DNA from: Candidatus Poribacteria bacterium
GTDB lineage: Bacteria; Poribacteria; WGA-4E; WGA-3G
Direction of reading: 5' to 3'
NCBI GenBank assembly: GCA_964291315.2
Contig: OZ219753.1
Location: forward strand, 1,320,140-1,384,139
Length of the DNA: 64,000 bases
Position 1 is the stretch's first letter. Each line of letters opens with the position of its first letter. The notes under the pieces are model-generated. The model searched no databases, was not told where the DNA came from, and saw nothing but the letters and a program-made list of their open reading frames with translations. Positions 12,801 through 32,091 of this stretch are shown piece by piece. A program made the translations under genes and the position numbers.

Positions 12801-12845
12801 AGGTCTGCCTCCTGCCTCTACTATCGTAATGAACTTATAGAATAA

Positions 12846-12874: not shown

Positions 12875-12917
12875 GTGGCTGATCTCAATAATTATCAAGG
12901 TTGCGTTGGGTATATGA

Positions 12918-13751: not shown

Positions 13752-13827
13752 GGCACTACCTCCTGTCTCTCTTGTTGTAATGAACTTATTGTATAGAGTT
13801 TATCCATACTGTTTGATCACGGAATCA

Positions 13828-14661
13828 TTATTTTTCAGTTTTCAGGCGTTTTATTTCAGCCAATGCGTCTGCGAGCTCTGCGTCTGCAGCTGCTGCGCGT
13901 GCATCGGCTTGTTGTCGTGCTTTTGCCTCTGCTTGTGCCCTGGCATCAGCCTCTTGTCGTGCTTTTGCCTCTGTGGCTGCCCGTGCATCGGCCTCTGCGG
14001 CCCTGGCATCAGCCTCTTGTCGTGCTTTTGCCTCTGCTTGCGCCCTGGCATCAGCTTCTTGTGCCCGTGCATCAGCGTGTCTAACCTGTTTATCCAAAGG
14101 CTCCAGCCATACCGAACGAACAGGATCATACAACCCGAGAACCCCATCACGCTCGCCTAACTCTAAACCCAGCACAAGCGACGGCAGACGATCCCCCGCA
14201 AAATCTATCTCCTCATACACACCATCAACAAGACGATACCCGAGAAAAGAGGGCGACACCTCGCCATAAGGATCGTAAATGTAATACTCACGCACCCCAA
14301 GCACCGAGGCATACAACTCACGCTTAGCAGTCAAGTCCTGCCGATAGGTGCTGCGACTCGCTAACTCTAACACAAAATCGGGCGCATGTCCCTCTTCCCA
14401 GACCCGATAGGTGCGCCGATCCTTTTTGCTGACCCCGAAGACAACAAACACATCTGGCGATACCGATTTCCTCGGGTTCCCCTCCTCATAATACAGCATG
14501 AGATTGCCAGAGACATATGCGTCGTTGACATCTTGGAAGTGGTGCTCCAGCATCTGAATGCAGTCGATCATAAGTTTTCTGTGTTTGTCGGTTTCTGCCA
14601 TAGGTTTATCGTCCGATTCGGGATAGACGAGCGTTGGAGCGGCTTTTATTTTGCTACACAT
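13828..14661 (-). CDS. Uma2/DUF820-family putative endonuclease with coiled-coil tail (copy 5)
   Basis: 277 aa. It carries the [19 protein letters not shown] variant shared with copy 6. Confidence 0.75.
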
Positions 14662-14706
14662 AGGTCTGCCTCCTGCCTCTACTATCGTAATAAACTTATA
14701 GAATAA

Positions 14707-14735
14707 AGTATATCAGCGAAAGCTGGATATATCAA
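14707..14735 (-). promoter_or_regulatory. sigma70-type promoter of Uma2 copy 5
   Basis: The same TTGATA-17-TATACT element is conserved in the repeated spacer. Confidence 0.55.
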
Positions 14736-14778
14736 GTGGCTGATCTCAATAATTATCAAGGTTGCGTTGGGTATATGA

Positions 14779-15591
14779 TTACGTGTCAGTTTTTAGGCGT
14801 TTGAGTTCAGCCAATGCGTCTGCGAGCTCTGCGTCTAAAGCTTGTGCGCGTGCATCAGCCTCTTGCCGGGCTCTTGCCTCTGCGTCTGCGCGTGCATCGG
14901 CGTGTTGTCGTGCTTTTGCCTCTGCTTGTGCTCGGGCATCAGCCTCTTGCCGGGCTCTTGCCTCTGCTTGCGCCCTGGCATCGGCTTCTTGTGCCCGTGC
15001 ATCAGCGTGTCTAACCTGTTTATCCAAAGGCTCCAGCCATACCGAACGAACAGGATCATACAACCCGAGAACCCCATCACGCTCGCCTAACTCTAAACCT
15101 AGCACAAGCGACGGCAGACGACCGTTCACGAAGCCTATCTCCTCATACACGCCATCAACAAGACGATACCCGAGAAAAGAAGGCGACACCTCACCATAAG
15201 GATCGTAAATATAATACTCACGCACCCCAAGCACCGACGCATACAACTCCCGCTTAGCAGTCAAGTCCTGCCGATAGGTGCTGCGACTCGCTAACTCTAA
15301 CACAAAATCGGGAGCGTGTCCCTCTTCCCAGACCCGATAGGTGCGCCGATCCTTTTTGCTGACCCCGAAGACAACAAACACATCTGGCGATACCGATTTC
15401 CTGGGGTTCCCCTCCTCATAATACATCATGAGATTGCCAGAGACATATGCGTCGTTGACATCTTGGAAGTGGTGCTCCAGCATCTGAATGCAGTCGATCA
15501 TAAGTTTTCTGTGTTTGTCGGTTTCTGCCATAGGTTTATCGTCCGATTCGGGATAGACGAGCGTTGGAGCGGCTTTTATTTTGCTACACAT
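14779..15591 (-). CDS. Uma2/DUF820-family putative endonuclease with coiled-coil tail (copy 6)
   Basis: 270 aa. Its upstream spacer matches the other units only up to about 15653, and the -10 element is degraded there. Confidence 0.75.
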
Positions 15592-15659
15592 AGGTCTGCC
15601 TCCTGCCTCTACTATCGTAATGAACTTATAGGATAAAGGGTATCAGCAAAAGCTGCCCC

Positions 15660-16130
15660 TTATGGTTGGACTATTCGCTGTTGTTTGAGGGTCTCTATAT
15701 CTGCTGCCAGCGCCTCGATCTGCTTTTCGAAGATGCGTTCTTTTCTAATGCGCCACATCATTATCACCTGTGGCAGCCCTATAACGACCCCTATTATTAC
15801 CATCAGCCACGTCATCATTTTTTCTATACCACCGATGCGTTCATTTACGCCGTCAATGCGTCCTTCTACGCCGTCAATGCGCCCATTTACAGCGTCTATG
15901 CGCCCTTCTACACCCTCGATGCGCCCGTTTACAGCGTCTATGCGCCCATTAAGGGCAGCGACTTGAGTCTTTAGGGTCACGATGTCGGCTCTTATCGGCT
16001 TCAGCTCCTCGCTGAGCTCCTCTTTGATGATCAACCGTATCTTATTCAGATCGGCATCCGTTAACGCACAAAACACAGGCGAGGCAATCACAAAAAAGAG
16101 CACAGAGAGTATAAATACCTTTTGCATCAC
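15660..16130 (-). CDS. small bitopic membrane protein with heptad repeats (hypothetical)
   Basis: 156 aa. It has an N-terminal signal/TM segment (VFILSVLFFVIASPVFCA) and six consecutive 7-aa repeats (RIDAVNG RIEGVEG RIDAVNG RIDGVEG RIDGVNE RIGGIEK). A TM helix (WLMVIIGVVIGLPQVIMMW) and a short coiled C-terminus follow. Confidence 0.6.
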   Translation of the reverse strand: MMQKVFILSVLFFVIASPVFCALTDADLNKIRLIIKEELSEELKPIRADIVTLKTQVAALNGRIDAVNGRIEGVEGRIDAVNGRIDGVEGRIDGVNERIGGIEKMMTWLMVIIGVVIGLPQVIMMWRIRKERIFEKQIEALAADIETLKQQRIVQP

Positions 16131-16179
16131 GGACTCCTCTGGACCAATTTAGCTTTCATGCTTACTTTTCATGCTCACT

Positions 16180-16208
16180 ATTGTCCCATTTTCTCAAGCG
16201 TTTGTCAA
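16180..16208 (-). promoter_or_regulatory. candidate promoter of the heptad-repeat membrane protein gene
   Basis: On the minus strand: TTGACA (16208-16203), a 17-nt spacer, then GACAAT (16185-16180). Confidence 0.4.
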
Positions 16209-16345
16209 GGAAATTGAGATGTGCCTACATTTGACTACACTACATTTGCCCCTATTTTTCGCGACTGCAACACGCCCCACCACTTGATAAAAAAAATGAA
16301 ACCGTCACCGCAGATTTATAGTTAAATTAACGATTGACTTTTTAG

Positions 16346-16375
16346 TTGACTTTTTTTCTAACGTCCGTGTATAAT
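16346..16375 (+). promoter_or_regulatory. candidate sigma70 promoter of the large adhesin gene
   Basis: TTGACT (16346-16351), an 18-nt spacer, then TATAAT (16370-16375). This leaves a leader of about 190 nt before the ATG at 16569. Confidence 0.5.
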
Positions 16376-16383
16376 ATAGGAAT

Positions 16384-16465
16384 ACCTTGTTGGGGCGGCA
16401 CTGCTAGGTCCTGTGCTGACAGGAACTGCCGCCCTACCATCCTAGCAGGGGGTCAAAAACAAGGT
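16384..16465 (+). promoter_or_regulatory. highly structured leader element (nested helices plus a crossing/alternative helix), class unknown
   Basis: All pairings below are perfect Watson-Crick. 16384-16391 (accttgtt) pairs with 16458-16465 (aacaaggt). 16393-16400 (gggcggca) pairs with 16427-16434 (tgccgccc). 16409-16414 (tcctgt) pairs with 16419-16424 (acagga) across a gctg loop. 16401-16408 (ctgctagg) pairs with 16441-16448 (cctagcag), which crosses the second helix. Confidence 0.35.
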
Positions 16466-16568
16466 CAGGGTAACCAGTTTTTTTCAAATCACAATAGACA
16501 TCACGGCATGCGGAGACTCCGTGATAAACGTGATGCATTGACAAGACAAGGAGAAGGATATTTTCTTT

Positions 16569-19500
16569 ATGAAAAACGTAATAACGCAAAAAATCGCCTT
16601 AAGCCTGCTGATAACGCTTGTATTAGCGTTCGGGGTGCCGGGAGGCGCAGACGCGATTACCAGGTTCACCAGAACCTCCAGCGACTACCCATTGGTAGCA
16701 CCTCAAACAGACTTCACCATTCGGTTCGGAGTCACCTTTACCTCCACCTCCACCGATTCAGAGACGGCTCGGATTACAGTATCGGGAGGCTCTCTCAAGA
16801 AAGTAGGAAACTTTGACGCTTCTGGAACTACCCAAGATTTAACGGAGGGAGGAACCGCCGGCAAAGGACAGCTCCTCAGCTCTCACACATTAACCCTGAC
16901 TTCCGGCGCAGCAGGCAAGATGAGCGTTACAATCTCGGATCGAACCTCCGGTGACAAAGCCAACGATTTGGTCTTTACGATCTACGTATCACCCGCTTTT
17001 ACAAGTACTAACGCTCCGGCCTTCAGCAGCAGCTCTGTTACGACCGCTAGAGGGGATGTAAAATTTTCAACCTCAACGCCGCTAACCCTTAGCGGGGAGC
17101 ACATCCGATTAAACTATAGGGTTACAGGTAACGGATCCGTCTTTATCAAAGAAGATGGCAAGGACGCAGGTACCACTTCAAAAAACCTGACCACATCTTC
17201 CGCGGCACCTGTCTATGTTCGTATGGGGGGAGGTACTAACAGAATAGCTATCTCTATTGTTGGTCAAAGAGCTAGCTCAACCATACAGGCTACCTATATC
17301 TATGGGGAGGAAACGGTACAAATAGTATCTGGCGATAAGCAGACCGGCGCAGTAGGCTCGGCTCTCGGCCAGCCGTTCGTTGTTAGGCTGACAGATACTG
17401 CGAATCGGCCTATTTCTGGCGTAAACGTTACATTTGATCCAGAAACAACAGATAATGACGAAGCTGCAATATTCATAAAAGATCTCGGTACGCCCGACGA
17501 TTTGCATGTTGCTTATGGTGCAGGCACTACTCCATTCACCACTACCCAAGGTCAAGCCGTAGTAAAAACCAATGCCAACGGCGAAGCCAAGGCTGTTTGG
17601 GTACTGCACCGGACTGCGCATGCCCTTGAGAATGTTGCCCATGCTCACCTGAGTGGGCGTTCTTCGGGAAGTAATGCTTCAGTTGCTTTTCAGGCAAGGG
17701 CTGTAGCAAAAAACCCGGTCGTGAGCTCTATTGTGATAGCATCCGGCAACGGGCAGAGCGCCGATCAATACGGAATCATCGCCAACCCTTTGGTGGTTAG
17801 CGTCCGAGATTCGGCCGGCCACTTGGTTAAAGGACAAACAGTGCTGTTCATCGCGTTAAGTGGCGGGACACTCAGTAACAGCTCAGACGAAGAGCCAGGG
17901 GCAGCCTCTGGCAGTAGCAGTGGTGCTAGTGTAACAGTCACAACAGATAACAGGGGTCAAGCCGGTGTTCGCTATGCGCCGTCGCAAGTCGGCGGAAGCC
18001 AGCAGGTGCGGGCGAGCATTACAGGGAGCGCCAGCTCCGTAACTTTTACTGTCAACGGCACACGAGGCACAACCCCAACTACACCTACAACTACACCCGA
18101 TTCCACCACACCCTCGACCCCAACCACACCTCCGCCGACGGACGGCGGGATTGTCGCAAGTCGCCTCAGAGTGGTGAGCGGTAACCAGCAGACCGGTGCA
18201 CCAGGGGCAGTGCTCAACCCGTTTGTCGTTCAACTCTTAGATACAGACGGCGACGGCATTGATCTCGTGGAGATCGATTTTGAAGTTGTATCCGGGAGCG
18301 GCACGCTCTCTGATAGCATGGATCAGACCGATGAGAGTGGCAATGCACGCTCAACGCTCACCCTCGGCAGTTCCGCTGGCACCGTAACCGTCCGGGTAAG
18401 CGTAGATTCCGATGAAATCGGGGGCCGTTCCATTTCCCCAGTCACCTTCACTGCAACGGCAGAGGTAACAACATTGCCACCCGATGCAATCAACATCGTC
18501 GGCGATGAAACGTTGACCGGCGATATCAACGAAGAGATAGAGCTCACCGTCCAAGTTGTAGATGCAGATGAAGATGGGGTAGACTTCGAACTCGTCACGT
18601 TCACCGTCACTGAAGGAAACGGGAGACTTCGCCCCAGTAGAGATCGAACCGACGAGGATGGCAATGCATCGACCTTTTTCACGCCTACCTCCCCGGGAAC
18701 GTTGGAAGTTCGAGCCAATTCAGGCGACCTGGATCCTGTCACTTTCACGATCACAACCTCCGATCCGCCTGACGCGATTACGATTATCTCCGGAAACAAC
18801 CAGAGCGGTAGACCCGGGGCCAGACTTGCCAACCCGTTTGTCGTTAGAGTGACTGATGCCCTCGACGACCCAGTTGCTGGGGTGACAGTCTCATTTTCGG
18901 TGACCGCAGGCGGCGGTAGCCTCTCCACCCAGAGCGCAACCACGAATAGCAACGGACGCGCACAGGCAGTGCTGACCCTCGGCGCTGACTCCGGCAATAA
19001 CACCGTCACTGCACGTGTCACAGGGCTGACGCCTGTTACCTTCAGGGCGATGTCGGGGGCAGAAGTGCACGTGGCTGCCGCACAGCGCCCACCGATGTAC
19101 TGGGTTGGTAGAGCCCAAGGCACGCTCCATCGCCTCGTCGGCGCCGCAGTTGAGAACCTCCTGCCGAATGTCACGGGTGTCACGGACATCGCAGTGGATG
19201 CAGCACAGGGAGCTCTCTATTTTGCTGTGAAAGTAGGTGAAAACAGAGGTTCCATCCGGAGTTCAGCCCTCAATGGACAGAACGTCAGGACTATCAAGAC
19301 GTTGACGGCTGTCCCCAACGGAATCGCCGTTGACGCGGCAAGCCAGACGGTCTATTGGACAAACTCCCGCGGCCGAATCCAATCTATCCCTGCAACGGGG
19401 AGCTCCAAGCTCACCAACGAAGTACAGAATATCTCTAACCCGAGCGCAATTGCGGTTTACAACCAATTTGTCTATTGGGTAGAGTTGAACCGGCTCCGCA

Positions 19501-20528
19501 GGGCCAGTCTCACTGCCACACCGCAGACGGCGGAAACGCTTGCAACGGCAGATGGCAATATTGTGAGCATCGCCGTCGCCAAAGGCAAAATTTACTGGAT
19601 CGAAAGCGGTGTAGGCGGACGGGGGACTCTCAAACGTTCCAACCTCGCAGGCAAGAACGTCGAAACCCTTAAAACCTTCGCCTCCAATGTACCCACTTCG
19701 GTAGCAGTGGATAGTTCAGACAACAAAATTTACTGGACGAAGGGCTCAGGTACAATCCAGCGCTCGAACCTCGCGGGTAAGTGGACGAAAAACATCGTTA
19801 CCGGATTGGCTAACCCGAGTGCTATCGCGCTTGGCACAATAACAGACAACCCGACTCCTGCCCAGCCGGCATCTTTGATATCAGAGGGGACAACGCCTAA
19901 AAAACCAACCACCTCCAAATACGATGTCAATGGCGATGGCAGCGTGGACGATCAGGATGTCACCCTTGTAGCACTCGCCCTTGACGGAAAATATAACGCA
20001 AAATACGACGTTAACGGTGACAAAGTGGTGGACGCAAAAGACCTCCGCGCAGTCATCAATAACACAGAGGACACTTCCGCAGCACCCGCAATCAATCTAG
20101 ACCTGAAGGCACTAGACATCGATTTCGATCGGGTTCAGGCACAGATTGAGAGCGTACTGGTATCCGACGATATGTCGCCCTCAACGCGACGCACATTGAT
20201 GTATCTCCAACACCTCTTGGCAACAGCGCGGCCCTCGGAGACAACGTTGTTAACCAACTATCCGAACCCGTTCAACCCAGAAACTTGGATACCGTATCAA
20301 TTGGCGGACAGCACCGAGGTGCGGATTAACATCTACGATGCCCAAGGCATCTTGATACGGGCATTGAACCTCGGGCATCAAACCGCGGGCTACTACACCC
20401 ACCGGAGTCGCGCCGCGTATTGGGACGGACGCAACGCCCTCGGCGAACCGGTTGCGAGCGGTATCTACTTCTACCAGCTCCAAACCGATACAACCTCCCT
20501 TATGCGGAAAATGGTTATCTTGAAGTAG
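16569..20528 (+). CDS. large secreted multidomain adhesin-like protein (Big_1 Ig-like repeats, YWTD-type beta-propeller, dockerin-like repeats, C-terminal T9SS/FlgD-type sorting domain)
   Basis: 1319 aa with a signal peptide. It has repeated Big_1-like modules (IVSGDKQTG..GSALGQPFVVRLTD, VVSGNQQTGAPGAVLNPFVVQLLD, IISGNNQSGRPGARLANPFVVRVTD) and a PT-rich linker. Blades follow with YWTN/YWVE/IYWIE/IYWTK. Next come two DVNGDGSVDDQD / DVNGDKVVDAKD calcium-binding repeats. The tail is NYPNPFNPETWIPYQL...GIYFYQLQ. Confidence 0.8.
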   Translation: MKNVITQKIALSLLITLVLAFGVPGGADAITRFTRTSSDYPLVAPQTDFTIRFGVTFTSTSTDSETARITVSGGSLKKVGNFDASGTTQDLTEGGTAGKGQLLSSHTLTLTSGAAGKMSVTISDRTSGDKANDLVFTIYVSPAFTSTNAPAFSSSSVTTARGDVKFSTSTPLTLSGEHIRLNYRVTGNGSVFIKEDGKDAGTTSKNLTTSSAAPVYVRMGGGTNRIAISIVGQRASSTIQATYIYGEETVQIVSGDKQTGAVGSALGQPFVVRLTDTANRPISGVNVTFDPETTDNDEAAIFIKDLGTPDDLHVAYGAGTTPFTTTQGQAVVKTNANGEAKAVWVLHRTAHALENVAHAHLSGRSSGSNASVAFQARAVAKNPVVSSIVIASGNGQSADQYGIIANPLVVSVRDSAGHLVKGQTVLFIALSGGTLSNSSDEEPGAASGSSSGASVTVTTDNRGQAGVRYAPSQVGGSQQVRASITGSASSVTFTVNGTRGTTPTTPTTTPDSTTPSTPTTPPPTDGGIVASRLRVVSGNQQTGAPGAVLNPFVVQLLDTDGDGIDLVEIDFEVVSGSGTLSDSMDQTDESGNARSTLTLGSSAGTVTVRVSVDSDEIGGRSISPVTFTATAEVTTLPPDAINIVGDETLTGDINEEIELTVQVVDADEDGVDFELVTFTVTEGNGRLRPSRDRTDEDGNASTFFTPTSPGTLEVRANSGDLDPVTFTITTSDPPDAITIISGNNQSGRPGARLANPFVVRVTDALDDPVAGVTVSFSVTAGGGSLSTQSATTNSNGRAQAVLTLGADSGNNTVTARVTGLTPVTFRAMSGAEVHVAAAQRPPMYWVGRAQGTLHRLVGAAVENLLPNVTGVTDIAVDAAQGALYFAVKVGENRGSIRSSALNGQNVRTIKTLTAVPNGIAVDAASQTVYWTNSRGRIQSIPATGSSKLTNEVQNISNPSAIAVYNQFVYWVELNRLRRASLTATPQTAETLATADGNIVSIAVAKGKIYWIESGVGGRGTLKRSNLAGKNVETLKTFASNVPTSVAVDSSDNKIYWTKGSGTIQRSNLAGKWTKNIVTGLANPSAIALGTITDNPTPAQPASLISEGTTPKKPTTSKYDVNGDGSVDDQDVTLVALALDGKYNAKYDVNGDKVVDAKDLRAVINNTEDTSAAPAINLDLKALDIDFDRVQAQIESVLVSDDMSPSTRRTLMYLQHLLATARPSETTLLTNYPNPFNPETWIPYQLADSTEVRINIYDAQGILIRALNLGHQTAGYYTHRSRAAYWDGRNALGEPVASGIYFYQLQTDTTSLMRKMVILK

Positions 20529-20540
20529 TCGCACAACATA

Positions 20541-20580
20541 AAAGAGGCACGGTCTCAAAACCGTGCCTCTTTTATTTATA
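20541..20580 (+). terminator. rho-independent terminator of the adhesin gene
   Basis: 12-bp perfect stem: aaagaggcacgg (20541-20552) pairs with ccgtgcctcttt (20561-20572) across an 8-nt loop. A T-rich tract (tatttata) follows. Confidence 0.8.
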
Positions 20581-20919
20581 AATAGATTGGAAAGCACCGC
20601 CTGGCCTTCCTTAAAATGGATCTCCTTGAACAGAAACGACGTGTGTATTAACCGTTTCCGTTTGTAATCTCCTTTGACTTGAATATCTTGGCGGACGCTC
20701 TGTCACTATATAGGCGCTTGTAGCATAGACTCTCATTTGAAAATAAAAACGAAAAAAAATAAAACTTTTTTCTCCGAGATGTGTATATACCTATTAAGAG
20801 GGCAACCTGTGTGTTATGTTGTTCTCTGTAAGTAGCATTTGAAAAGTATTCCGATTTCACTTATAGGTGTGAACGTTTCGCTGGAAGATGTGTAGCGTTT
20901 GCGAAGAAGGAGAAGAGTC

Positions 20920-21261
20920 ATGTCAACAGAGGTTCGTTATAAAGCAGGGGTTGTTATAGTTGAGCCCCGTGGCAAGATAATAGGTGGGCGTGTCTCGGAG
21001 CTACGGACTGCGATATTACCAGAGGTGAGAGCCTGTGATGCCCCTCGTATTCTGATAGATTTATCGCATGCACATCGTTTAGATTCCTCGGGTTTAGGGG
21101 TGCTGATGCAAGCGTATGTGCTGACGAAGCACAAGCGTGGGCGCATCGGTGTCATCCATGTCGGCAAACACATCAGGAACTTACTGGTTATCAGCCGGTT
21201 ATTGACATCATTTGAGCATTTCAACAGCGAGTCTGCGGCGGTTGCAGCGTTTGGAAAATAG
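20920..21261 (+). CDS. STAS-domain protein (anti-sigma-factor antagonist, SpoIIAA-like), copy A
   Basis: 113 aa counted from the ATG preceded by GGAGAAGAG. It has the typical STAS layout (VVIVEPRGKIIGG...ILIDLSHAHRLDSSGLGVLM). Confidence 0.75.
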   Translation: MSTEVRYKAGVVIVEPRGKIIGGRVSELRTAILPEVRACDAPRILIDLSHAHRLDSSGLGVLMQAYVLTKHKRGRIGVIHVGKHIRNLLVISRLLTSFEHFNSESAAVAAFGK

Positions 21262-21319
21262 GTAAAGAAGGCTGCAGCGCCCCTTTTGCGTTCGTTTGAA
21301 AAAACAGTTGTTCCGTCCC

Positions 21320-21351
21320 GGAGTCACAGCTGGATTGCCGGCTGTGGCTCC
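21320..21351 (+). terminator. 14-bp hairpin downstream of STAS copy A (possible terminator/attenuator)
   Basis: ggagtcacagctgg / attg / ccggctgtggctcc. The two G-U pairs form only on the + (sense) RNA. The hairpin is followed by gtgtttcc, which is a weak U tract. Confidence 0.35.
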
Positions 21352-21429
21352 GTGTTTCCAAATATCTACCCGCGCTGTTGAATACAAGCATCTCTTTCGC
21401 GGTTTTGCAAATTGTCACGGAGTATCCAA

Positions 21430-23577
21430 ATGAGATGTGTCACTAACGTCTTGATAGCGCTTCTGTTTCTGATTAACCCTATCGGGCATTCACAATCCGA
21501 TAACCGTATTGTAGCTTTTGATTGTCCAAAACTGCCGACTTCTGAATTCAATTTCGATGTAGATAGCCAAGTTATCGCGCTTTTAATGGAGGACCCAACC
21601 TCGGATATACCACCGTTGTTTAACACTATCGATGTTCTCTCCCTGCGCAGCTATCGAGGGCAGTCCGTCAGTTTCAAGGACATCGTTGAATATTATCAAG
21701 ATATTCTAGAAGCGCGCCAGTGGCACGTTTTAAGACTCCCCGCCGAAGATGATTTAGAAAGTGCCACTTTGCATCTCTATGTCCTCCAAGAAAACGACAC
21801 TGTTTACGGGATCTTTGCTATGATAAAAAGCACCGATACAGTGTACCTCATAAACATCACGGGTGCGATCCCGGAAGAGCAGCTAGGTGCCTTGCTCACA
21901 GGTCTCAATAAACTCAGTATTGAAATCCCGGAGCTCATGTCCCTGAATTCTGAGAGTGTGAAAGCTGCGCGAGCGGAAACATCAATGCCTGCTCAAACTG
22001 CCCCAGCAACGAGAACGCCTTCTGTTACACCGCGCGAGACTCCGCCGCTTACGCGAACTGTCTCACTCCTAAGATCTATGACTATCTCAGCGGCGGGCAG
22101 TAGCCCTGTCTACGAATCAATACCTGACACGTTAGTCGGGCAGAAAAACGACCTACAGGCTTCAAAAAACATCCCCCGTTTTTGGGCTGGCGACGTGCCT
22201 ATCCACGCTATACGAATCCGGGGAAACCAGAAAATTTCAGAACAGGTCATCCGACAGACACTCGAAAATAGTCAGTCGCCTGACCTCTCAAAAGCGCTGG
22301 AGACCCTCTTTAAAGCGGCTCCCTATTTTAAAGAGATCGCTTTACAAGTAGATAAGGAAAGTTCGAAATATATCGCCACAATTACGTTTAGTGAAAAACT
22401 GCTTTCTACCGGTGTATACCTCGGCTTCCACCGCCAACTGCGTCTCGGTTTCAACCGAGTGACAGGCTGGGAGATCGGGGCAACAGGTATTGAATTCGGT
22501 AAAAGAGAGAATGTCGGTCCGTTTTGGGTGTGGAACCTCAGCGATTCAGTCAGTGATCGCACCCACAAACTCTTTGGAGAGGCCAATTATGTCTTCGGCA
22601 ACCCGCGTTTTCACTACCGTTTGGGTGGAACGGCGAATTGGGGGAAGCTTCATACGTGGAGCCTCGGACTCACCGCACAAATTCACCGTTTGACAGATGT
22701 CGTTGCCCCTGAACTCTTTCCGAACATGCCGCTCCCTAATTTTCAACGGACTATCGGGGCACCGGACCTTCAAAATTACTATCTTCGCCAAGGTGCCGAG
22801 ATCGCGATGCGATGGTCACCCGAAATGCCGCTTCACACGTTCAAAATGACAATGCTTGCAGAGTCACAGTCGAGCCTACAGAAAAGCACAGATTGGTTTC
22901 TCACGAATTGGAGCTCAACCTACACTGTCAGGGAAAACCCACCAATACGCCCCGGGAAAATGCGAAGCATCGCCTTCCAATACGATTTTCGGGACCTGAA
23001 AAGAAGATCTTTGGGATGGCAGAATACCCTCCTCATCGAACATAGCAATACTCGCTTTGGATCCGACTTCGATTTTACACGTTTGCTCTTACACCTCCGG
23101 TACGCTTTTCCGCTCGGGGATCACCGAGTGCGCACCCGATTTCTTTTCGGGTTCTCCAACAGATCACTTCCCGTTCAACGCCAATTTGTTATAAATGGGA
23201 TAGCGGGACTCCGCGGATATCCTTGGTACAGAGAAGAAAATGAACCCGAAGGTTTTATGAATTACAAGTTCGGGCACACCGTTTCTCCCTATGCCTTTGC
23301 GGGAGACCGCGGGTTTCTACTCAACGTTGAATATCACCACAGCTTAGCAACCCTATTGAGGTGGAGTTTTTTCAAAACTGCGTTCGCGATTATCTTCTTA
23401 GACGAAGGACAAGTTTGGCATGTATCCGGCCCGGCGTATACTTTCAATCCCAAAGGGAACATCGGCATCGGTGCACAGATGTTAGTCGGTATTTTCCTTC
23501 TCCGAGCCAACATCGCAAAAGCCTTTGAGTCCGGAAAAGGGTTTCAAGTTACGACGGTTTTAAACCACCCGTTTTAG
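21430..23577 (+). CDS. Omp85/BamA-TamA-family outer-membrane protein (single POTRA-like module plus beta-barrel)
   Basis: The start was moved to the ATG at 21430, where GGAG lies 8 nt upstream. It has a signal peptide (VLIALLFLINPIGHS) and a PT-rich linker. A POTRA-like block (IHAIRIRGNQKISEQVIRQTLE) follows. The C-terminal region is long, aromatic- and Gly-rich, and ends in ...VLNHPF with a terminal Phe. Confidence 0.55.
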   Translation: MRCVTNVLIALLFLINPIGHSQSDNRIVAFDCPKLPTSEFNFDVDSQVIALLMEDPTSDIPPLFNTIDVLSLRSYRGQSVSFKDIVEYYQDILEARQWHVLRLPAEDDLESATLHLYVLQENDTVYGIFAMIKSTDTVYLINITGAIPEEQLGALLTGLNKLSIEIPELMSLNSESVKAARAETSMPAQTAPATRTPSVTPRETPPLTRTVSLLRSMTISAAGSSPVYESIPDTLVGQKNDLQASKNIPRFWAGDVPIHAIRIRGNQKISEQVIRQTLENSQSPDLSKALETLFKAAPYFKEIALQVDKESSKYIATITFSEKLLSTGVYLGFHRQLRLGFNRVTGWEIGATGIEFGKRENVGPFWVWNLSDSVSDRTHKLFGEANYVFGNPRFHYRLGGTANWGKLHTWSLGLTAQIHRLTDVVAPELFPNMPLPNFQRTIGAPDLQNYYLRQGAEIAMRWSPEMPLHTFKMTMLAESQSSLQKSTDWFLTNWSSTYTVRENPPIRPGKMRSIAFQYDFRDLKRRSLGWQNTLLIEHSNTRFGSDFDFTRLLLHLRYAFPLGDHRVRTRFLFGFSNRSLPVQRQFVINGIAGLRGYPWYREENEPEGFMNYKFGHTVSPYAFAGDRGFLLNVEYHHSLATLLRWSFFKTAFAIIFLDEGQVWHVSGPAYTFNPKGNIGIGAQMLVGIFLLRANIAKAFESGKGFQVTTVLNHPF

Positions 23578-23722
23578 GCCAAAACAAACCCTAACATACA
23601 ATATTAACTCGTCACATAGATGTAGTAGTTGTAAGATGTGGTATATTCAATCGGATCACGCTGAAATGACCCTGTATGCGGCATCGTTCCAGATGATGAG
23701 CGTGCATGGTGATTGTGAGGAC

Positions 23723-23754
23723 GAAGCCACAGCCGGCATCCCAGCTGTGGCTCC
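23723..23754 (-). terminator. hairpin downstream of STAS copy B (counterpart of 21320-21351)
   Basis: On the minus strand: ggagccacagctgg / gatg / ccggctgtggcttc. Two substitutions relative to the left copy change pair types (U-G to C-G, and G-C to G-U) without breaking the helix. Confidence 0.35.
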
Positions 23755-23814
23755 ATGATACAAGTGGTGTTTTTTTTCAAACGGACACAAAAGGGGCGCT
23801 GCAGGCTGCTTTAC

Positions 23815-24156
23815 CTATTTCGCAAACGCTGCAACCGCCGCAGACTCGCTGTTAAAATGCTCAAATGATGTCAATAAGCGAGTGATAACCAGTAAGCTCC
23901 TGATGTGTTTGCCGACATGGATGACACCGATGCGCCCACGCTTGTGCTTCGTCAGCACATACGCTTGCATCAGCACCCCTAAACCCGAGGAATCTAAACG
24001 ATGTGCATGTGATAAATCTATCAAGATCCGAGGCGCATCGTAGGCGCTCACCTCTGGTAATATCGCAGTCCGTAGCTCCGAGACACGCTCACCTATTATC
24101 TTGCCACGGGGCTCAACTATAACAACCCCTGCTTTATGACGAACCTCTGTTGACAT
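23815..24156 (-). CDS. STAS-domain protein (anti-sigma-factor antagonist), copy B
   Basis: 113 aa. It differs from copy A at about 7 residues, for example Y/H, G/E, RAC/SAY, N/S, S/T and G/A. Confidence 0.75.
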   Translation of the reverse strand: MSTEVRHKAGVVIVEPRGKIIGERVSELRTAILPEVSAYDAPRILIDLSHAHRLDSSGLGVLMQAYVLTKHKRGRIGVIHVGKHIRSLLVITRLLTSFEHFNSESAAVAAFAK

Positions 24157-24534
24157 GACTCTTCTCCTTCTTCGCAAACGCTACACATCTTCCAGCGAAA
24201 CGTTCACAGTGCAAGCAAATGGAAATAGCTTTCAAATACTTCTTACAGAGAACAACATAACACACAGGTTGCCCTCTTAATAGGTATAGATACATCTCGG
24301 AGAAAAAAGTTTGTTTTTTTTTATTTTTTTGTTCGCAGCAGAGGAAGATGAAGGGGATCGCCCAAAAACGTTCACTCTTAACGCACAAGCGGTATGCGTT
24401 TTTCGGCGGTTCTTGTGACACTGCAACGGGGTCATATCAGTCTGGTTTGCTGTTATACCGGATTGTATAACATGTGTGGTCGTAGATTAGACTCTTCAGC
24501 GCAAGTATGTGGTGTACGTTCGGGTGTATCTAGT

Positions 24535-25704
24535 TCATAGTGCGGAGAGCTCTGGTAGCTCTACCCACTTGCGGGTTTGGCAAGATTCCATGCCTTTTTC
24601 TGCTAATTGCACGCCCTTCGCGCCTGCAAGGAGGGTCCACGGAAACGGTTCGTCAGCCACGATATGTCGAAGGAACAGCTCCCACTGTGCTCTAAATGCG
24701 TTCTCATAGGCTTCCTGTTCTGGTATTTTGAGCCATCCATCGAAGAATTGAATCGGTTGCTCTATGTCAGGATTCCAGACGGGACGTGGGGTGCCGGAAA
24801 GCGGTTGGATCCAACAATCCCTCAAGCCTGCAACAGCGGAGCCGTTCAAACCGTCTACGTGTAGAGTCAGCAGATCGTCCCGCCGAACCCTGACCGCCCA
24901 AGATGAGTTAAAGTGTGCAATGATGCCGTTTTTCAATTCAAACGTTGCATAGGCGGCATCTTCAGCTGTGCAGGTGTAAGGTTTGCCTTCCTCATCCCAT
25001 CTTTCTGGCAGATGCGTCGCAGCGATACAGGAAACGGAGTTGACTGCCCCGAATAGGTGGTCGATGACGTATCGCCAGTGACTGAACATGTCGAGAATAA
25101 TACCGCCTCCGTCTTGGGCACGGTAGTTCCAGGAGGGGCGCTGCGTGGGAATGGCATCGCCTCGGAAAACCCAATAGCCGAACTCACCTCGCACTGCGAG
25201 AATCTCTCCGAAAAAGTCAGCATCTATCAGGCGTTTCAATTTCTGAATGCCGGGCAGCCAGAGCTTATCCTGAACGACACCGTTCTTGAGTCCGGCTTTC
25301 GCTGCTTGTTCATAGAGACTATAAGCGTCATCGGTAGTGGTAGCAGTCGGTTTTTCACAATAGATGTGTTTGCCAGCGCGTATTGCGGCTTGGACTGCCT
25401 CGACCCGGCGTGAGGTAACTTGTGCGTCGAAATAGACAGCGTAAGAATCATCAGCGAGGGCGGTATCGAGATCCGTGCTCCACTTCTCAACACCGGTAGT
25501 TGCAGCTAATCTCTCAAGCTTCTCTGCACTCCTACCGACGAGAAACGGTTCGGGCATAATAACGCTGCCATCCCCGATCGGAATGCCCCCGTCTTCTGCA
25601 ATTGCCAATATAGATCGGATAAGATGCTGGTTTGTTCCCATCCGGCCGGTCACACCGTTCATGATGATACCGACGCGGTGTGTCTGCTGGGTATGATTCG
25701 CCAT
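24535..25704 (-). CDS. Gfo/Idh/MocA family oxidoreductase
   Basis: 389 aa. It has an N-terminal Rossmann segment (RVGIIMNGVTGRMG) and a typical EKP motif (HIYCEKP). Confidence 0.7.
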   Translation of the reverse strand: MANHTQQTHRVGIIMNGVTGRMGTNQHLIRSILAIAEDGGIPIGDGSVIMPEPFLVGRSAEKLERLAATTGVEKWSTDLDTALADDSYAVYFDAQVTSRRVEAVQAAIRAGKHIYCEKPTATTTDDAYSLYEQAAKAGLKNGVVQDKLWLPGIQKLKRLIDADFFGEILAVRGEFGYWVFRGDAIPTQRPSWNYRAQDGGGIILDMFSHWRYVIDHLFGAVNSVSCIAATHLPERWDEEGKPYTCTAEDAAYATFELKNGIIAHFNSSWAVRVRRDDLLTLHVDGLNGSAVAGLRDCWIQPLSGTPRPVWNPDIEQPIQFFDGWLKIPEQEAYENAFRAQWELFLRHIVADEPFPWTLLAGAKGVQLAEKGMESCQTRKWVELPELSAL

Positions 25705-25718
25705 ATATAGTCCTTTGG

Positions 25719-26162
25719 TTAAGGTTTGTCAGTGCATTGCGGAGCTGCGCCCGCTGGCAGGGGCGGTGCGTCAACGCCGGCCTTCGGGAGAGTGCCAGCG
25801 AGTTCCTGTTTCCAGTGAGCTACATCGCCCGCGGGACCGTAGCAGTAGACCATATGCATCGGCGTGTCGCTGGTATTTGTCAATTGATGGAAACTCCAAG
25901 ACGGGATAAATACAGTCTGCCCCGCCGAGATGGTTTGACGTTCCTCGCCGAGACACATTTCGCCCTCACCTTCAACGATGAAGTAGATCTCTTCTTGTTC
26001 ATGGTTGTGCCATGGCACTTGTCCACCGTTCGGTTCTAAGACGACAAACCCGAGACAGAATTCATCTATCTGGATCGGAGAGGCACCACCGACGAGATTT
26101 CTGGTGAGTCTACGGGCCGGATAGGTTCGCCCATCCATTTCGTTTATGTCTGCGATTAGCAT
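25719..26162 (-). CDS. cupin-domain protein
   Basis: 147 aa. It has cupin motif 1 (GGQVPWHNHEQEEIYFIVEGEG) and motif 2 (GQTVFIPSWSFHQLTN). Confidence 0.7.
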   Translation of the reverse strand: MLIADINEMDGRTYPARRLTRNLVGGASPIQIDEFCLGFVVLEPNGGQVPWHNHEQEEIYFIVEGEGEMCLGEERQTISAGQTVFIPSWSFHQLTNTSDTPMHMVYCYGPAGDVAHWKQELAGTLPKAGVDAPPLPAGAAPQCTDKP

Positions 26163-26275
26163 GTCTATTGTCCTTTCAAGGAAGCTGTCTTTTTTTCGAG
26201 AGCGGATTTATCTATTATATAGGCGTGCTTTGCCGTCATGCACGCCTATATAATAACAAGACACGTCCGTTTACA

Positions 26276-28912
26276 CTAACCCTCATTTTCAATGACAGCT
26301 TGTGCTGCGGCGAGTCGTGCAATCGGCACACGGAACGGCGAGCACGATACGTAATCGAAGTCTAAGCCGTGGCAGAACTTCACAGAATTCGGCTCCCCGC
26401 CATGTTCACCACAGATACCGAGTTTGAGATCGGGCCGTGTTGCACGCCCTTTTTCAGAACCGATTTGCAAAAGACTGCCAACACCGTCCTGGTCGAGTAC
26501 CTGGAACGGGTCATATTCAAGAATACCGTTTCTGACGTAGGTATCAAGAAATTTCACTGCGTCATCACGACTCATGCCGAATGTCGTCTGGGTGAGATCA
26601 TTGGTGCCGTATGAGAAGAATTCGGCCTCGGCAGCGATTTTGTCAGCCGTGAGTGCTGCACGTGGTAGTTCAATCATCGTGCCGATAAGATACTCGACGC
26701 GCGTGTTGGTCTGTTTAAACACAGTTTCTGCTGTTTCAACAACAATCTTGCGCTGTAAAGATAATTCGTTGATGTGACCGACAAGTGGAATCATAATCTC
26801 TGGTAAGACGGGGATCCCCCGTTTTGAGACCTCGACAGCGGCTTCAAAGATGCCCCGGGCTTGCATCTCGGTTATCTCTGGATAGACGATACCGAGTCTA
26901 CATCCACGATGCCCAAGCATCGGATTAAACTCATGCAGTTCTTCAACACGCCCCCGCAGTTTTTCTGGTTCCACATCGATGCGAGCAGCCAATTCAAGGA
27001 TCTCAGCCTCGCTTTTCGGCAGGAATTCATGGAGCGGTGGATCAAGCGTGCGAATCGTGACCGGGTAACCCGCCATCGCCTCGAAAATACCGATGAAGTC
27101 TGAGCGCTGATGTGGGAGCAATTTTGTCAATGCTTGCTGGCGTTCTTCTATATCATCAGCAAGTATCATCTCACGCACAGCATCAATCCCCGTGCCGAAG
27201 AACATATGTTCGGTGCGACAGAGACCGATCCCTTCCGCGCCAAATTGCCTAGCATTTTTCGCATCTTCAGGCGTATCGGCGTTCGTGCGAATGCCTAAGG
27301 TTCGGATTTCATCCGCCCATTCCATGAGAGTTCCGAATTGACCACTCAGCTCAGGCTGGATAAGCGCGACCTTTCCCTCGAGAACATCCCCCGTAGATCC
27401 GTTGAGCGTGATGAAATCACCTTCAGTGTAGCGTTTCCCCTCAGCGTAAAATTCTCGTGCTTTTTCATTAATGAACAGAGTAGAGCATCCTGCCACACAG
27501 CACTTACCCATCCCGCGGGCGACGACCGCAGCGTGGCTTGTCATGCCTCCGCGGGCAGTGAGGATCCCCTCTGCGGCATCCATGCCGCCGATGTCCTCTG
27601 GTGATGTTTCCGTACGAACGAGAATAACCTTTTCCCCTTTGGCCGCGAGTTCTTCAGCGTGGAGGGCAGTGAAAACAACTTTGCCAACAGCAGCACCCGG
27701 GGAGGCAGGCAAACCTTGTGCGATCACTTCAACGTTAGCCTCCGGGTCAACGCTCGGATGCAGCAGCTGATCGAGATCGTTGGCCGGGACGCGCGTTAAA
27801 GCCGTCCGCTTATCGATTAAACGTTCCTCAGCCATCTCAACAGCGATGCGAACAGCGGCTTGACCGGTACGTTTCCCGTTACGGGTCTGGAGCATGTAGA
27901 GTTTGCCGTCTTGAATCGTAAATTCTACATCTTGCATGTCGCGATAGTGCATCTCAAGATTTAAGCCGATCTCGACCAATTCTTCATGCACATCGGGCAA
28001 GATGTTTTTCAATTCAGCGATGGGGAGCGGTGTACGGATGCCGGCGACCACATCTTCGCCTTGGGCATTCATGAGGAATTCTCCATAGAACTGGTTTGCC
28101 CCAGTTGACGGGTTCCGGGTGAAGGCTACTCCTGTCCCAGAACTTCCGCCCATATTTCCGAATACCATCGCTTGGACGTTAACAGCGGTACGCCCGAGCT
28201 CCTCGGAAATATCGTTGAGCCGACGGTAGGTAATAGCCCGCTGGTTTCCAGAAGATTCAAAAACAGCATCTCGTGCCATGTCTAGCTGCTGTCGAGGTTC
28301 ATCAGGAAAATCATCGCCTGTGTGCTGTCTAACAATGTTCTTAAACTCTTGGACGAGTTCCACTAAATCATGGGCTTCTAATTCAGTATCTAACGTAACG
28401 CCCTTAGTCTTTTTCTTTTCTTCGAGTAAATGCTCAAATTCATCGTGATCGACGTTAAGCACAACATTTCCAAACATCTGGACGAAGCGCCGGTAGGCAT
28501 CATAAGCGAAACGTTTGTTTTCGGATTTAGCGATCAGCCCTTTAACTGCATCATCATTTAAACCGAGGTTGAGAATTGTATCCATCATACCGGGCATCGA
28601 GACAGCAGCCCCAGAACGCACAGAAAGGAGGAGTGGGTTTTCGGTATCACCGAATTTTGAACCGAGGGCGGCCTCTAATTTCGCTAAGTTCTCGTCAATC
28701 TGTTCGTCGAGCCCAGCGGGGTACTGTTTGTCATTTTCGTAGTATAATTTACAGACCTCAGTGGAGATAGTGAAGCCGGGCGGAACAGGGATACCGAGAT
28801 TGCTCATCTCCGCAAGATTTGCTCCTTTCCCGCCGAGGAGCGACCGCATTGTAGCGTCGCCTTCGCTCTCACTACCTCCAAAGAAGTAGACATACTTTGG
28901 TTGTGGCATCAA
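26276..28912 (-). CDS. ppdK: pyruvate, phosphate dikinase
   Basis: 878 aa. Blocks read: LLGGKGANLAEM, the phospho-His block GGMTSHAAVVARGMGK, and the PEP-utilising C-terminal blocks GLCRTEHMFF and SYGTNDLTQ. Confidence 0.93.
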   Translation of the reverse strand: MMPQPKYVYFFGGSESEGDATMRSLLGGKGANLAEMSNLGIPVPPGFTISTEVCKLYYENDKQYPAGLDEQIDENLAKLEAALGSKFGDTENPLLLSVRSGAAVSMPGMMDTILNLGLNDDAVKGLIAKSENKRFAYDAYRRFVQMFGNVVLNVDHDEFEHLLEEKKKTKGVTLDTELEAHDLVELVQEFKNIVRQHTGDDFPDEPRQQLDMARDAVFESSGNQRAITYRRLNDISEELGRTAVNVQAMVFGNMGGSSGTGVAFTRNPSTGANQFYGEFLMNAQGEDVVAGIRTPLPIAELKNILPDVHEELVEIGLNLEMHYRDMQDVEFTIQDGKLYMLQTRNGKRTGQAAVRIAVEMAEERLIDKRTALTRVPANDLDQLLHPSVDPEANVEVIAQGLPASPGAAVGKVVFTALHAEELAAKGEKVILVRTETSPEDIGGMDAAEGILTARGGMTSHAAVVARGMGKCCVAGCSTLFINEKAREFYAEGKRYTEGDFITLNGSTGDVLEGKVALIQPELSGQFGTLMEWADEIRTLGIRTNADTPEDAKNARQFGAEGIGLCRTEHMFFGTGIDAVREMILADDIEERQQALTKLLPHQRSDFIGIFEAMAGYPVTIRTLDPPLHEFLPKSEAEILELAARIDVEPEKLRGRVEELHEFNPMLGHRGCRLGIVYPEITEMQARGIFEAAVEVSKRGIPVLPEIMIPLVGHINELSLQRKIVVETAETVFKQTNTRVEYLIGTMIELPRAALTADKIAAEAEFFSYGTNDLTQTTFGMSRDDAVKFLDTYVRNGILEYDPFQVLDQDGVGSLLQIGSEKGRATRPDLKLGICGEHGGEPNSVKFCHGLDFDYVSCSPFRVPIARLAAAQAVIENEG

Positions 28913-29049
28913 AAGCCTCCTATGATTGGTTATTAGTGTTGTATTGTATCGTCATCGGCATTCAGTAGACGATGGCAGCGGTTTTTATCGTTTTCACCTG
29001 CCACAAGATCTGCTCTACTGAACGCTGGGGTTATTTCGTTGACAACTCT

Positions 29050-30411
29050 TTAAATTGAGTAAATTGTACGGCTTGCTTCGTCAAATTCGGGTTTAAAAGG
29101 ATCCGTTGAAAGATAAAGAATCTGGTATGGCTCATAAAGTTGAATATAACTCCAATTCACCCCGCACAGCACTTTCCCTTGGTTTACTTTTTTGATGAAT
29201 TTGCCTCTAAACTTGGCTCTCGTGCGTTCAGGCGGGAAATTTTCAGCACGCCGAATTTGCTCGTCTCCGACAATCCGTTCAATCTCGCCCCGATTTTCGA
29301 GCGCATAGTAAAGACTTTCTTGCTGCCGTACGTTATGGTATTTTAAATCCAAGTGTTTGACTTGCGGAGCGTCCCAATCAAAACCGCGTCTTGTGAGATA
29401 TGTCTGTAACCACTTCCACTTAATCACCCAATCCAATTCGCGATCCAGCTGCGTTGGATCACTTTCTAAACAGGTGAGGACATACTCCCATCGCGCCATA
29501 ATTTGTGTTGTCGTTGCATCAGATTCGGCTTGTTCGAGGTAGCGTTTTGCACACTCTAAATACTGCCATTGCAGCTGAACAGCCGAGACTCGCTTTCCGT
29601 TTTGAAGTTCAATGAGGTGCTTGCAGGTAATGTCATTAGAAATATCGCGTATAGCTCTAACGGGGTTCCGAAGGGCGAAACGTTGTTCAATGAAATTGTC
29701 TTCAATCATACGGAGGATAATGCCGGTGGTTCCGACTTTCAAAAAAGTGGAAAATTCGGACATGTTTGAATCTCCCACGATAACGTGTAAGCGCCTATAT
29801 TTCTCCCGATCCGCATGCGGTTCATCGCGTGTGTTGATAATTCCGCGTGCGGTTGTTGTGCCGATAGAGATTTCTTCCCGGATGTGTTCAGCCCGCTGCG
29901 AGATGGCGTAATAACCTTGATGCCTCGGTTTGATTTTCCCCCCGCCTGTGAAGACCTGCCGCGTCACAAAGAATGGAATCAGCTGTGCTGCGATCTGTCG
30001 AAAATCGACATGACGCTCCATCAAATAGTTTTCATGGCATCCGTATGTATTTCCGGGGGTATCCAAGTTGTTCTTAAAAATGGATATCCTGCCGAAGAAT
30101 CCATCATTGCGCATGCGTCTTTCAGCTGTTGTTGCAAGGCGCGTAATGATACGCTCACCTGCCTTATCGTGAGCAACCAGCTCAGCAACGTCATCACACT
30201 CTGGGGTAGCATATTCTGGATGGCATCCTATATCTTGATAAAACCTTGCACCGTTTTCAAGGAAAACATCAGGATACATTCTCCCCGCCACGATTTCGCG
30301 GAAGAGATACATCACAACGTTCTGGACAGTGAGTGTTTTTCTACGCGGCGCGTCCGGGGTCCAGATGATCCCGAATTCAGTTTCCAGTCCGTAAATCCTA
30401 CGATTCATCAA
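29050..30411 (-). CDS. pafA: Pup--protein ligase
   Basis: 453 aa. Blocks read: YGLETEFGI, GCHENYL, RLHVIVGDSNMSE. It is the shorter of the two Dop/PafA paralogs and lies last in the cluster, as in actinobacteria. Confidence 0.8.
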   Translation of the reverse strand: MMNRRIYGLETEFGIIWTPDAPRRKTLTVQNVVMYLFREIVAGRMYPDVFLENGARFYQDIGCHPEYATPECDDVAELVAHDKAGERIITRLATTAERRMRNDGFFGRISIFKNNLDTPGNTYGCHENYLMERHVDFRQIAAQLIPFFVTRQVFTGGGKIKPRHQGYYAISQRAEHIREEISIGTTTARGIINTRDEPHADREKYRRLHVIVGDSNMSEFSTFLKVGTTGIILRMIEDNFIEQRFALRNPVRAIRDISNDITCKHLIELQNGKRVSAVQLQWQYLECAKRYLEQAESDATTTQIMARWEYVLTCLESDPTQLDRELDWVIKWKWLQTYLTRRGFDWDAPQVKHLDLKYHNVRQQESLYYALENRGEIERIVGDEQIRRAENFPPERTRAKFRGKFIKKVNQGKVLCGVNWSYIQLYEPYQILYLSTDPFKPEFDEASRTIYSI

Positions 30412-30492
30412 TTACCTCTCGATAAATACCTTTGCCATCATGAACTTGGCTGTATTTGCAAACAAACGGTGTCACATTGAATAGTTGGCAGA

Positions 30493-31218: not shown

Positions 31219-31294
31219 GTCTGTGTTTTTTGTGTTCCGAGGAGTACGAAGACGACATTAGTGCCAGTTGACTATAGGTGCATTGAACTCAGCA

Positions 31295-32089: not shown

Positions 32090-32091
32090 TC

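Follow-up and report, generated by a model that had tools for sequence, protein, structure and literature searches.

An inverted pair of STAS cassettes around an Omp85-like gene in an accessory island of Candidatus Poribacteria

Introduction

SpoIIAA and RsbV are the closest described counterparts of two STAS genes that we report here from Candidatus Poribacteria, a sponge symbiont of an uncultivated phylum. The two genes lie in a 64-kb stretch of contig OZ219753.1 (the window, the whole of the DNA analysed), as an inverted pair on either side of a gene for an Omp85-like protein. As in SpoIIAA and RsbV, their products are about 113 amino acids (aa) long, with a full-length STAS domain and the motif DSSGLG; the profile of their family matches the SpoIIAA structures 1AUZ and 1TH8 over the full length (E about 1e-11), and their relatives often stand beside sigma-family genes. 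Like the Omp85 superfamily (BamA, TamA), the Omp85-like protein matches PF01103 at its C-terminus, and it aligns locally with the C-terminal end of the BamA model. Tandem STAS arrays are found in other Poribacteria, and the window cassettes resemble these in family, in unit size (460–700 nucleotides, nt) and in the hairpin downstream of each copy. Inverted repeats flanking a gene-bearing segment are likewise the layout of the Hin, Gin and Fim switches and of composite transposons. A literature search turned up no paper on STAS proteins or anti-sigma antagonists in Poribacteria.

A previous sequence-only reading of the window saw here either a geometry maintained for a reason or a composite, mobile-like module. 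We consider another account likely, namely a lineage-specific inverted duplication of a STAS cassette within an accessory island, in which the linkage to the Omp85-like gene is positional and not functional.

Two inverted STAS cassettes

The sequence-only reading had placed an inverted duplication of about 0.6 kb around the Omp85-like gene, which a repeat finder and pairwise alignment confirmed. The parts of the unit are listed with their evidence in parentheses.

20745–21354, plus strand: left arm, a complete STAS cassette of A/T-rich upstream region, ribosome-binding site (RBS), gene, 3′ spacer and stem-loop (inverted repeats, alignment)
20920–21261, plus strand: STAS1, 113 aa, SpoIIAA-type single-domain STAS (PF01740 E 1e-12, TIGR00377 48 bits)
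21355–23720, no strand: unique segment between the arms, 2366 nt, one gene (repeat finder, alignment)
21430–23577, plus strand: Omp85-like gene, 715 aa, accessory paralogue of a Poribacteria-wide family (PF01103 25.5 bits)
23721–24329, minus strand: right arm, second STAS cassette, ending about 200 nt short of the island edge (inverted repeats, alignment)
23815–24156, minus strand: STAS2, 113 aa, 94% identical to STAS1, convergent with the Omp85-like gene (PF01740 E 3.6e-13)
20868–21304 with 23772–24208: inverted repeat piece, 437 nt, 95% identity (repeat finder)
20745–20857 with 24217–24329: inverted repeat piece, 113 nt, 89% identity (repeat finder)
21299–21353 with 23721–23775: inverted repeat piece, 55 nt, 76% identity (repeat finder)

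The three repeat pieces are collinear, and the arms as wholes (20745–21354 and 23721–24329) are reverse complements with 554 of 612 columns identical in the pairwise alignment. An earlier estimate by eye of about 95% for the coding part holds for the coding sequence (CDS), which is 95% identical; precise alignment gives 90.5% for the complete arms. Upstream of the CDS, identity is 91% in the distal region, 45% in a 22-nt patch, and 100% in the 52 nt that precede the start codon and make up the 5′ untranslated region (5′ UTR) and RBS; past the CDS it is 76% in the 3′ spacer and 85% in the stem-loop. Just beyond both arm ends similarity drops to 24–29%. Each arm has an AGGAG RBS, 8–12 nt upstream of STAS1 in the left one. 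The 5′ UTR of the arms gave no fold better than its shuffles and no Rfam match.

Both STAS genes are intact, as had been claimed. PF01740 matches residues 4–107 of 113 in both copies, with 48.2 and 49.6 bits against a cut-off of 22.6; TIGR00377 scores 48–53 bits for the two, below its cut-off of 53.45. Each copy has the motif D55-S56-S57-G58-L59-G60, and across 35 family members L59 never varies, while conservation of S56, S57, G58 and G60 is 90% or higher. We take the serine of this motif to be the equivalent of SpoIIAA Ser58, which would make it phosphorylatable. Of the 17 nt differences between STAS1 and STAS2, 10 are synonymous and 7 non-synonymous (7 aa differences); the ratio of non-synonymous to synonymous differences per site (pN/pS) is about 0.23, which indicates that purifying selection has kept both genes intact from their divergence onwards. 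In the protein collection they are mutual closest relatives (94% identity, against at most 69% to any other sequence), and the inverted duplication is therefore lineage-specific.

The absence of an anti-sigma kinase, PP2C phosphatase or sigma factor nearby also stood up: a Pfam scan of positions 1114 to 49416, covering open reading frames (ORFs) of 150 aa or longer, found no kinase, PP2C or sigma gene (statements on partner genes refer to the 64-kb window throughout). The sigma-like partner that accompanies related STAS genes has no homologue in the window, and no remnant of it was found upstream of the STAS genes. Judged by their family, the two STAS copies may act in trans, as cytoplasmic components of a partner-switching system whose partners would be encoded elsewhere. 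PADLOC gave no match for the STAS genes or the Omp85-like gene as a defence system, and an exact-sequence look-up of the window's own proteins gave no match.

A self-contained, duplication-prone STAS cassette would have been copied in inverted orientation within an island that lies between an oxidoreductase gene and rtcB. The accessory Omp85-type gene may have come to lie between the two copies or, alternatively, may have inserted between them.

Support from public sequencing runs

The public runs holding the locus, among them X1–X4, were read as Logan contigs of k = 31, not as raw reads. Such contigs end or collapse inside the arms, and variants between identical flanks form bubbles that are popped at contig building. 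Contigs of X1, X2 and X3 cover both flank-to-arm junctions and the middle segment with both inner arm ends, the latter spanned in X1 by a single contig of 2629 nt. X1 contains 100% of the sampled words of the middle segment and is probably the source sample. X3, from a strain diverged by 3–5%, has the full structure at single-copy depth. The duplication is older than this strain divergence and younger than the split from the syntenic relatives described below.

Because the arms have diverged and contigs of three independent runs support the junctions, the structure is not an assembly artefact. Chimeric long reads can yield inverted repeats, and a fold-back chimera is the form that such an error would take here; we hold it to be extremely improbable, since the arms differ at 58 of 612 columns, both copies are intact genes under purifying selection, and X1, X2 and X3 agree on the junctions and inner arm ends.

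The longest identical runs between the arms are 112, 70 and 48 nt, and a recA gene is present in the window (36069–37112), so that gene conversion between the arms, or inversion of the segment between them, is mechanistically possible. The arms would be long enough for either to proceed by a RecA-dependent route, and an inversion would be a like-for-like swap and phenotypically silent. Since it merely exchanges one STAS cassette for the other, such an arrangement is tolerated, which is no argument for its selection.

A stronger claim would be that the repeat is recombination-active, with RecA crossover and conversion maintaining both orientations in the population and the arms changing in concert. 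This would be compatible with the duplication that we favor, and the identical runs and the recA gene speak for it, as do two further observations: the differences in the CDS are clustered (p about 0.016 for the longest identical run of 112 nt), and in X4 the contig that runs in from the right flank has the variable 22-nt patch in the form typical of the left arm. The X4 patch could stem from gene conversion or could be the ancestral state, which explains it equally well. The assembly shows one orientation. Inverted junctions were seen in no contig, an absence that counts as non-evidence, as k = 31 contigs break in the arms; identical stretches of the arms cannot be phased, and these contigs are therefore uninformative on the orientation of 21355–23720. 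On balance we regard an active repeat as unlikely.

Homogenised arms in X1 and X3, a mark of gene conversion read from an absent variant block, were considered and rejected, as such bubbles disappear when contigs are built. Contig depth in X4 is 7–9 for the Omp85 segment (21500–23550), 35–50 for the flanks and 20–25 for each STAS variant; strains in which the middle segment is missing or replaced may coexist there with carriers, or this may be an effect of low coverage.

Stem-loops at the inner arm ends

Each arm closes on its inner side with a stem-loop.

21319–21352, plus strand: left stem-loop, 15 bp, loop AUUG, 58 nt past the STAS1 stop (−29.6 kcal/mol, z −4.5)
23722–23755, minus strand: right stem-loop, 16 bp, loop GAUG (−31.1 kcal/mol on the STAS sense strand, z −4.2)

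The sequence-only reading had described a 14-bp hairpin that keeps its pairing despite two substitutions between the copies. The pairing is indeed kept; the stems have 15 and 16 bp, and three positions differ (21319, 21324 and 21350). All three are single-sided transitions in which pairing is retained through G-U wobble, so that 3 of 3 differences are wobble changes and there is no double compensatory change in the stem. Both loops have 4 nt. Pairing is preserved on the STAS sense strand only: the antisense strand folds more weakly (−24 kcal/mol left, −26 kcal/mol right) because its wobble pairs turn into A-C mismatches.

A window search found the motif in the two arms only, with 0 expected by chance. 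A dispersed REP-like (repetitive extragenic palindromic) repeat was considered as an identity for it and rejected, as it occurs in these two arms and in 0 of 86 fetched related loci.

No U-tract follows the stem on the STAS sense strand, where the tails read GUGUUUCC and GUCCUCAC, and a consensus terminator scan reports no site. For lack of the U-tract, the stem-loops are not canonical intrinsic terminators. On the plus strand, opposite to the STAS sense, the right stem is followed some 15 nt later by the only T-run (T8), which could help to end the Omp85 transcript. The stem-loops are most likely 3′-end structures of the STAS mRNAs, whose ends they would mark or stabilise. Owing to the inverted layout they would also bracket the Omp85-like gene, the left one damping read-through from STAS1 and the right one separating the convergent STAS2 and Omp85 transcripts.

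The Omp85-like protein

That the 2.37-kb middle segment holds a single 715-aa gene of the Omp85 family was confirmed, with a marginal match to PF01103 (25.5 bits against a cut-off of 24, residues 520–710). We found 326 homologues; those with a source name are from Candidatus Poribacteria, some are named 'BamA/TamA family' by NCBI, and PF01103 is on record for 120 of the 120 homologues listed. TIGR03303 (BamA) matches the last 167 residues only, with 28.1 bits against a cut-off of 297.15. A profile search gave no relative in PDB. The AlphaFold2 model is poor, with a mean predicted local distance difference test (pLDDT) score of 43.6 and a barrel below 50.

From N- to C-terminus the protein has a signal-peptide-like stretch, a DUF4252-like N-domain, a Pro/Thr-rich linker, one POTRA-like element and a divergent barrel. 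The profile search of the N-terminus, a region that the sequence-only reading had left without a name, gave the DUF4252 match at E 3e-4, below cut-off; the domain was modelled with moderate confidence. POTRA has no Pfam match in the window protein, and PF07244 is on record for two homologues (P0017 and P0021); in the low-confidence AlphaFold2 model residues 259–322 follow a beta-alpha-alpha-beta-beta pattern. Members of this family usually have 800–840 aa. Some 100 of these residues, which look like one POTRA-type domain, are missing both from the window protein and from P0002, to which it is most closely related (71% aa identity).

STAS and Omp85 neighborhoods in other Poribacteria

We examined 69 STAS-family loci from Poribacteria genomes and eight Omp85-family loci (L001–L003, L079–L083; long flanks are available for 6 of the 8). 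No STAS gene lies near the Omp85 family at any of the eight, and the gene of the window has no counterpart beside STAS at any of the 69. Among the STAS loci an Omp85 paralogue is present at L049 alone, at a distance of 6 kb and with 37% identity. The usual neighbors of the Omp85 family are PA14 and DUF4159 genes (L002, L003). At L001, the closest relative, another Omp85 gene lies upstream and an APH gene downstream; nucleotide similarity is confined to the gene itself (window 21407–23588), and the arms are not shared.

STAS genes of the relatives often form direct tandem arrays of 2–4 copies spaced by 460–700 nt, about the length of an arm. All 103 of the 103 tblastn matches within STAS loci are on the same strand, so that inverted pairs are absent from these loci. 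A hairpin with a T-run, a canonical terminator, stands downstream of almost every copy, and the cassette with its own hairpin is thus the usual unit of STAS genes. In the clade closest to the window genes (58–69% identity) the STAS gene lies about 45 nt downstream of a gene for a Sigma70_r4 protein of 180–215 aa, and several contigs of this clade carry Rep3, ParA, insertion sequence (IS) or restriction-modification genes. The conserved chromosomal STAS locus is flanked by genes for extracytoplasmic function (ECF) sigma factors.

Some of these neighborhoods are of interest in themselves. The two-gene unit of a Sigma70 region 4-only protein and STAS is conserved in L004–L008, L031 and L077, with no anti-sigma kinase between the two genes. 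Rep3, ParA or IS genes are also present in L004–L006, whose contigs bear names with a final 'c', perhaps for circular. In L015 an uninterrupted 406-aa ORF (5680–6900), 3 kb upstream of the conserved chromosomal STAS gene, joins ECF sigma regions 2 and 4 to a tubulin/FtsZ GTPase domain, and just downstream of that STAS gene is a 572-aa ECF sigma with a long C-terminal extension.

The doubt of the sequence-only reading that STAS and Omp85 form a standard module was well placed, as 0 of 8 and 0 of 69 loci combine them, and its suggestion of a geometry maintained for a reason finds no support in these same loci. A functional module would mean that the STAS and Omp85 genes are co-regulated or serve one pathway, with the symmetry selected because it keeps Omp85 downstream of a STAS promoter in either orientation. 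It would fit that STAS1 lies 168 nt from the Omp85-like gene and in the same orientation, that the hairpin between them is without a U-tract and might be read through, and that three strains have kept the structure. Besides the lack of co-occurrence, the signal peptide and barrel of the Omp85-like protein set it apart from the STAS proteins, which would be cytoplasmic, and the recurrent neighbors differ, being sigma-type genes for STAS and PA14 and DUF4159 genes for Omp85; STAS genes of the relatives thus have neighbors unrelated to Omp85. We think such a module improbable.

The accessory island

The unit lies at the right edge of an island whose borders and nearest gene are as follows.

8164–24550, no strand: accessory island, 16.4 kb, absent from syntenic relatives (blastn synteny with L085 breaks off at 8163 and returns at 24551)
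6683–8155, minus strand: RtcB gene, conserved, left island border (Pfam RtcB E 2e-173, synteny)
24535–25704, minus strand: GFO/IDH/MocA oxidoreductase gene, conserved, right island border (Pfam; 91% identical orthologue P0209)
16569–20528, plus strand: giant 1319-aa surface protein, just upstream of the left arm (Pfam, NCBIfam)

Nucleotide identity to the syntenic relative is about 80% over 1114–8163 and 24551–34715; 8164–24550 has no counterpart. The oxidoreductase gene directly adjoins rtcB in L084, L085 and L086, and in two relatives the distance between the genes is 130–190 nt. Gene order in the relatives is Mpa, Dop, Pup, proteasome beta and alpha, PafA, PPDK, (Uma2), cupin and oxidoreductase, followed by RtcB, Pyr_redox, GFO, DUF3108 and ALAD. 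The island holds a split Type II methylase/Mrr nuclease, six tandem Uma2 genes, a coiled-coil gene, the surface protein and the STAS-Omp85-STAS unit. The syntenic relative has its own member of the Omp85 family (P0075) elsewhere, only 54% identical as against 91% for the oxidoreductase; the window gene is therefore an accessory paralogue, not a displaced orthologue.

No tRNA gene, integrase, target-site duplication or deviant G+C was found in the island or at its borders, and no recombinase or transposase domain among the genes scanned in the island and its flanks. The arms encode STAS only, without transposase or recombinase in the ORF and Pfam scan. Their outer flanks, ...CATTTGAAAATAAAAACG on the left and TTGTTCGCAGCAGAGG... 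on the right, are not direct repeats and show no target-site duplication.

The idea of a composite mobile module, in which the arms are the ends of an element that brought the Omp85-like gene here, meets these results badly: neither arms nor island yielded a transposase or recombinase, direct repeats are lacking outside the arms, no tRNA gene turned up, the closest Omp85 relative is without arms, and the arm flanks are lineage-specific. In its favor are the position of the unit at the edge of an inserted island and the Rep3, ParA, IS and restriction-modification genes on contigs of the closest STAS clade. We judge it very improbable. What survives of the earlier term 'mobile-like' is that the whole unit sits in a 16.4-kb insertion missing from two syntenic relatives.

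Origin of the inverted pair

Several points weigh against the passive duplication that we propose. Inverted orientation is unique among about 70 STAS loci, and an ordinary duplication leaves it unexplained. Arm identity is very uneven (45% to 100%) which, together with the clustering of the CDS differences, could reflect gene conversion between arms that interact more than passive duplicates would. STAS1 and the Omp85-like gene could be co-transcribed; the terminator role of the stem-loop is one that we infer, as the STAS sense side is without a U-tract. The placing of STAS partners elsewhere draws on 64 kb of genome.

The readings can also be joined. The arms would then be a RecA-driven, invertible and converting pair, with both isomers of the island edge in the population and STAS copies that change in concert, the STAS cassette, and in relatives the pair of sigma-like gene and STAS on plasmid-like contigs, may be a proliferating regulatory unit peculiar to Poribacteria, and read-through may couple Omp85 expression to a partner-switching signal. 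We consider this combination decidedly unlikely, and continue to prefer a lineage-specific inverted duplication with positional linkage.

Other features of the window

The island has a second local amplification besides the STAS pair, an array of six head-to-tail Uma2 genes (PF05685, putative restriction endonuclease) at 10191–15591. Its period is about 920 nt, its genes are 75–100% identical and its 97-nt intergenic pieces are almost identical; it has weak PADLOC matches to the candidate system PDC-S03. Near one end of the array, five 21-nt tandem repeats (15809–15950) lie within the 156-aa coiled-coil ORF (15660–16130; DUF7310-like, below cut-off), and a 45-nt, 87% identical copy of the start of this repeat lies 5.9 kb off at the other end (9916–9960). 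The Type II N6/N4 DNA methyltransferase at 8432–9864 is in two ORFs (8432–9124 and 9121–9864) that overlap by 4 nt, and the second encodes an Mrr/NA-iREase1 nuclease domain; the gene is a pseudogene broken by a frameshift or else a frameshifted fusion of methylase and nuclease.

The surface protein beside the left arm has Big_1 Ig-like domains, an LDL-receptor class B propeller, dockerin and a C-terminal sorting domain of the type IX secretion system (T9SS) type, and its gene has its own hairpin with a T-run at about 20546–20578. At its sorting domain (about 20255–20300) read depth is several-fold to far above that of the neighboring sequence, with many divergent loose ends, which suggests many paralogues sharing this tail in these communities.

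Outside the island, 29050–35801 holds a complete Pup-proteasome cluster, syntenic in L084–L086, with a Mpa-like AAA ATPase, a Dop-like gene of the Pup ligase family, Pup, two proteasome subunits and a PafA-like gene; Pup has 65 aa and ends in GGQ (32092–32289, minus strand). A Type ISP restriction-modification enzyme may lie split at 44480–47556, where two adjacent minus-strand ORFs have the C-terminal specificity domain of Type ISP and a domain of N6 DNA methylases.

Comparison with known systems

The data give no sign of a new regulatory link from STAS to the outer membrane, and the locus has little bearing beyond Poribacteria genomics. Within that field, single-domain STAS genes appear as small duplication-prone cassettes, in tandem arrays elsewhere and as an inverted pair here, and genes for accessory surface proteins (the giant adhesin-like protein, the Omp85 paralogue) are clustered in an island, specific to the strain or lineage, with conserved housekeeping genes on either side. 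For assembly and the comparison of strains the inverted pair is relevant in that local inversion or gene conversion could occur between its copies.

Unlike SpoIIAA and RsbV, the window STAS genes have no SpoIIAB/RsbW-type kinase, PP2C or sigma gene near them, fall below the TIGR00377 cut-off, and form an inverted pair around an outer-membrane protein gene. The Omp85-like protein is very divergent from BamA, with a DUF4252-like N-domain in place of the POTRA array; it has one POTRA-like domain fewer than its relatives of 800–840 aa, and its gene is an island-borne paralogue, unlike the housekeeping BamA. Hin, Gin and Fim switches and composite transposons depend on a recombinase or transposase, of which the genes scanned in the island and its flanks show none, and the repeats of the window are diverged gene copies of 610 bp in place of short sites or IS. 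Composite transposons further differ by their target-site duplication, and the switches in that an inversion here leaves the same kind of gene upstream. Closest in kind are the STAS arrays of other Poribacteria, whose copies are adjacent and head-to-tail, whereas in the window two inverted copies enclose 2.4 kb with a foreign gene. The locus is a new example of an ordinary event, the inverted duplication of a paralogue in an accessory island, from a poorly studied phylum.

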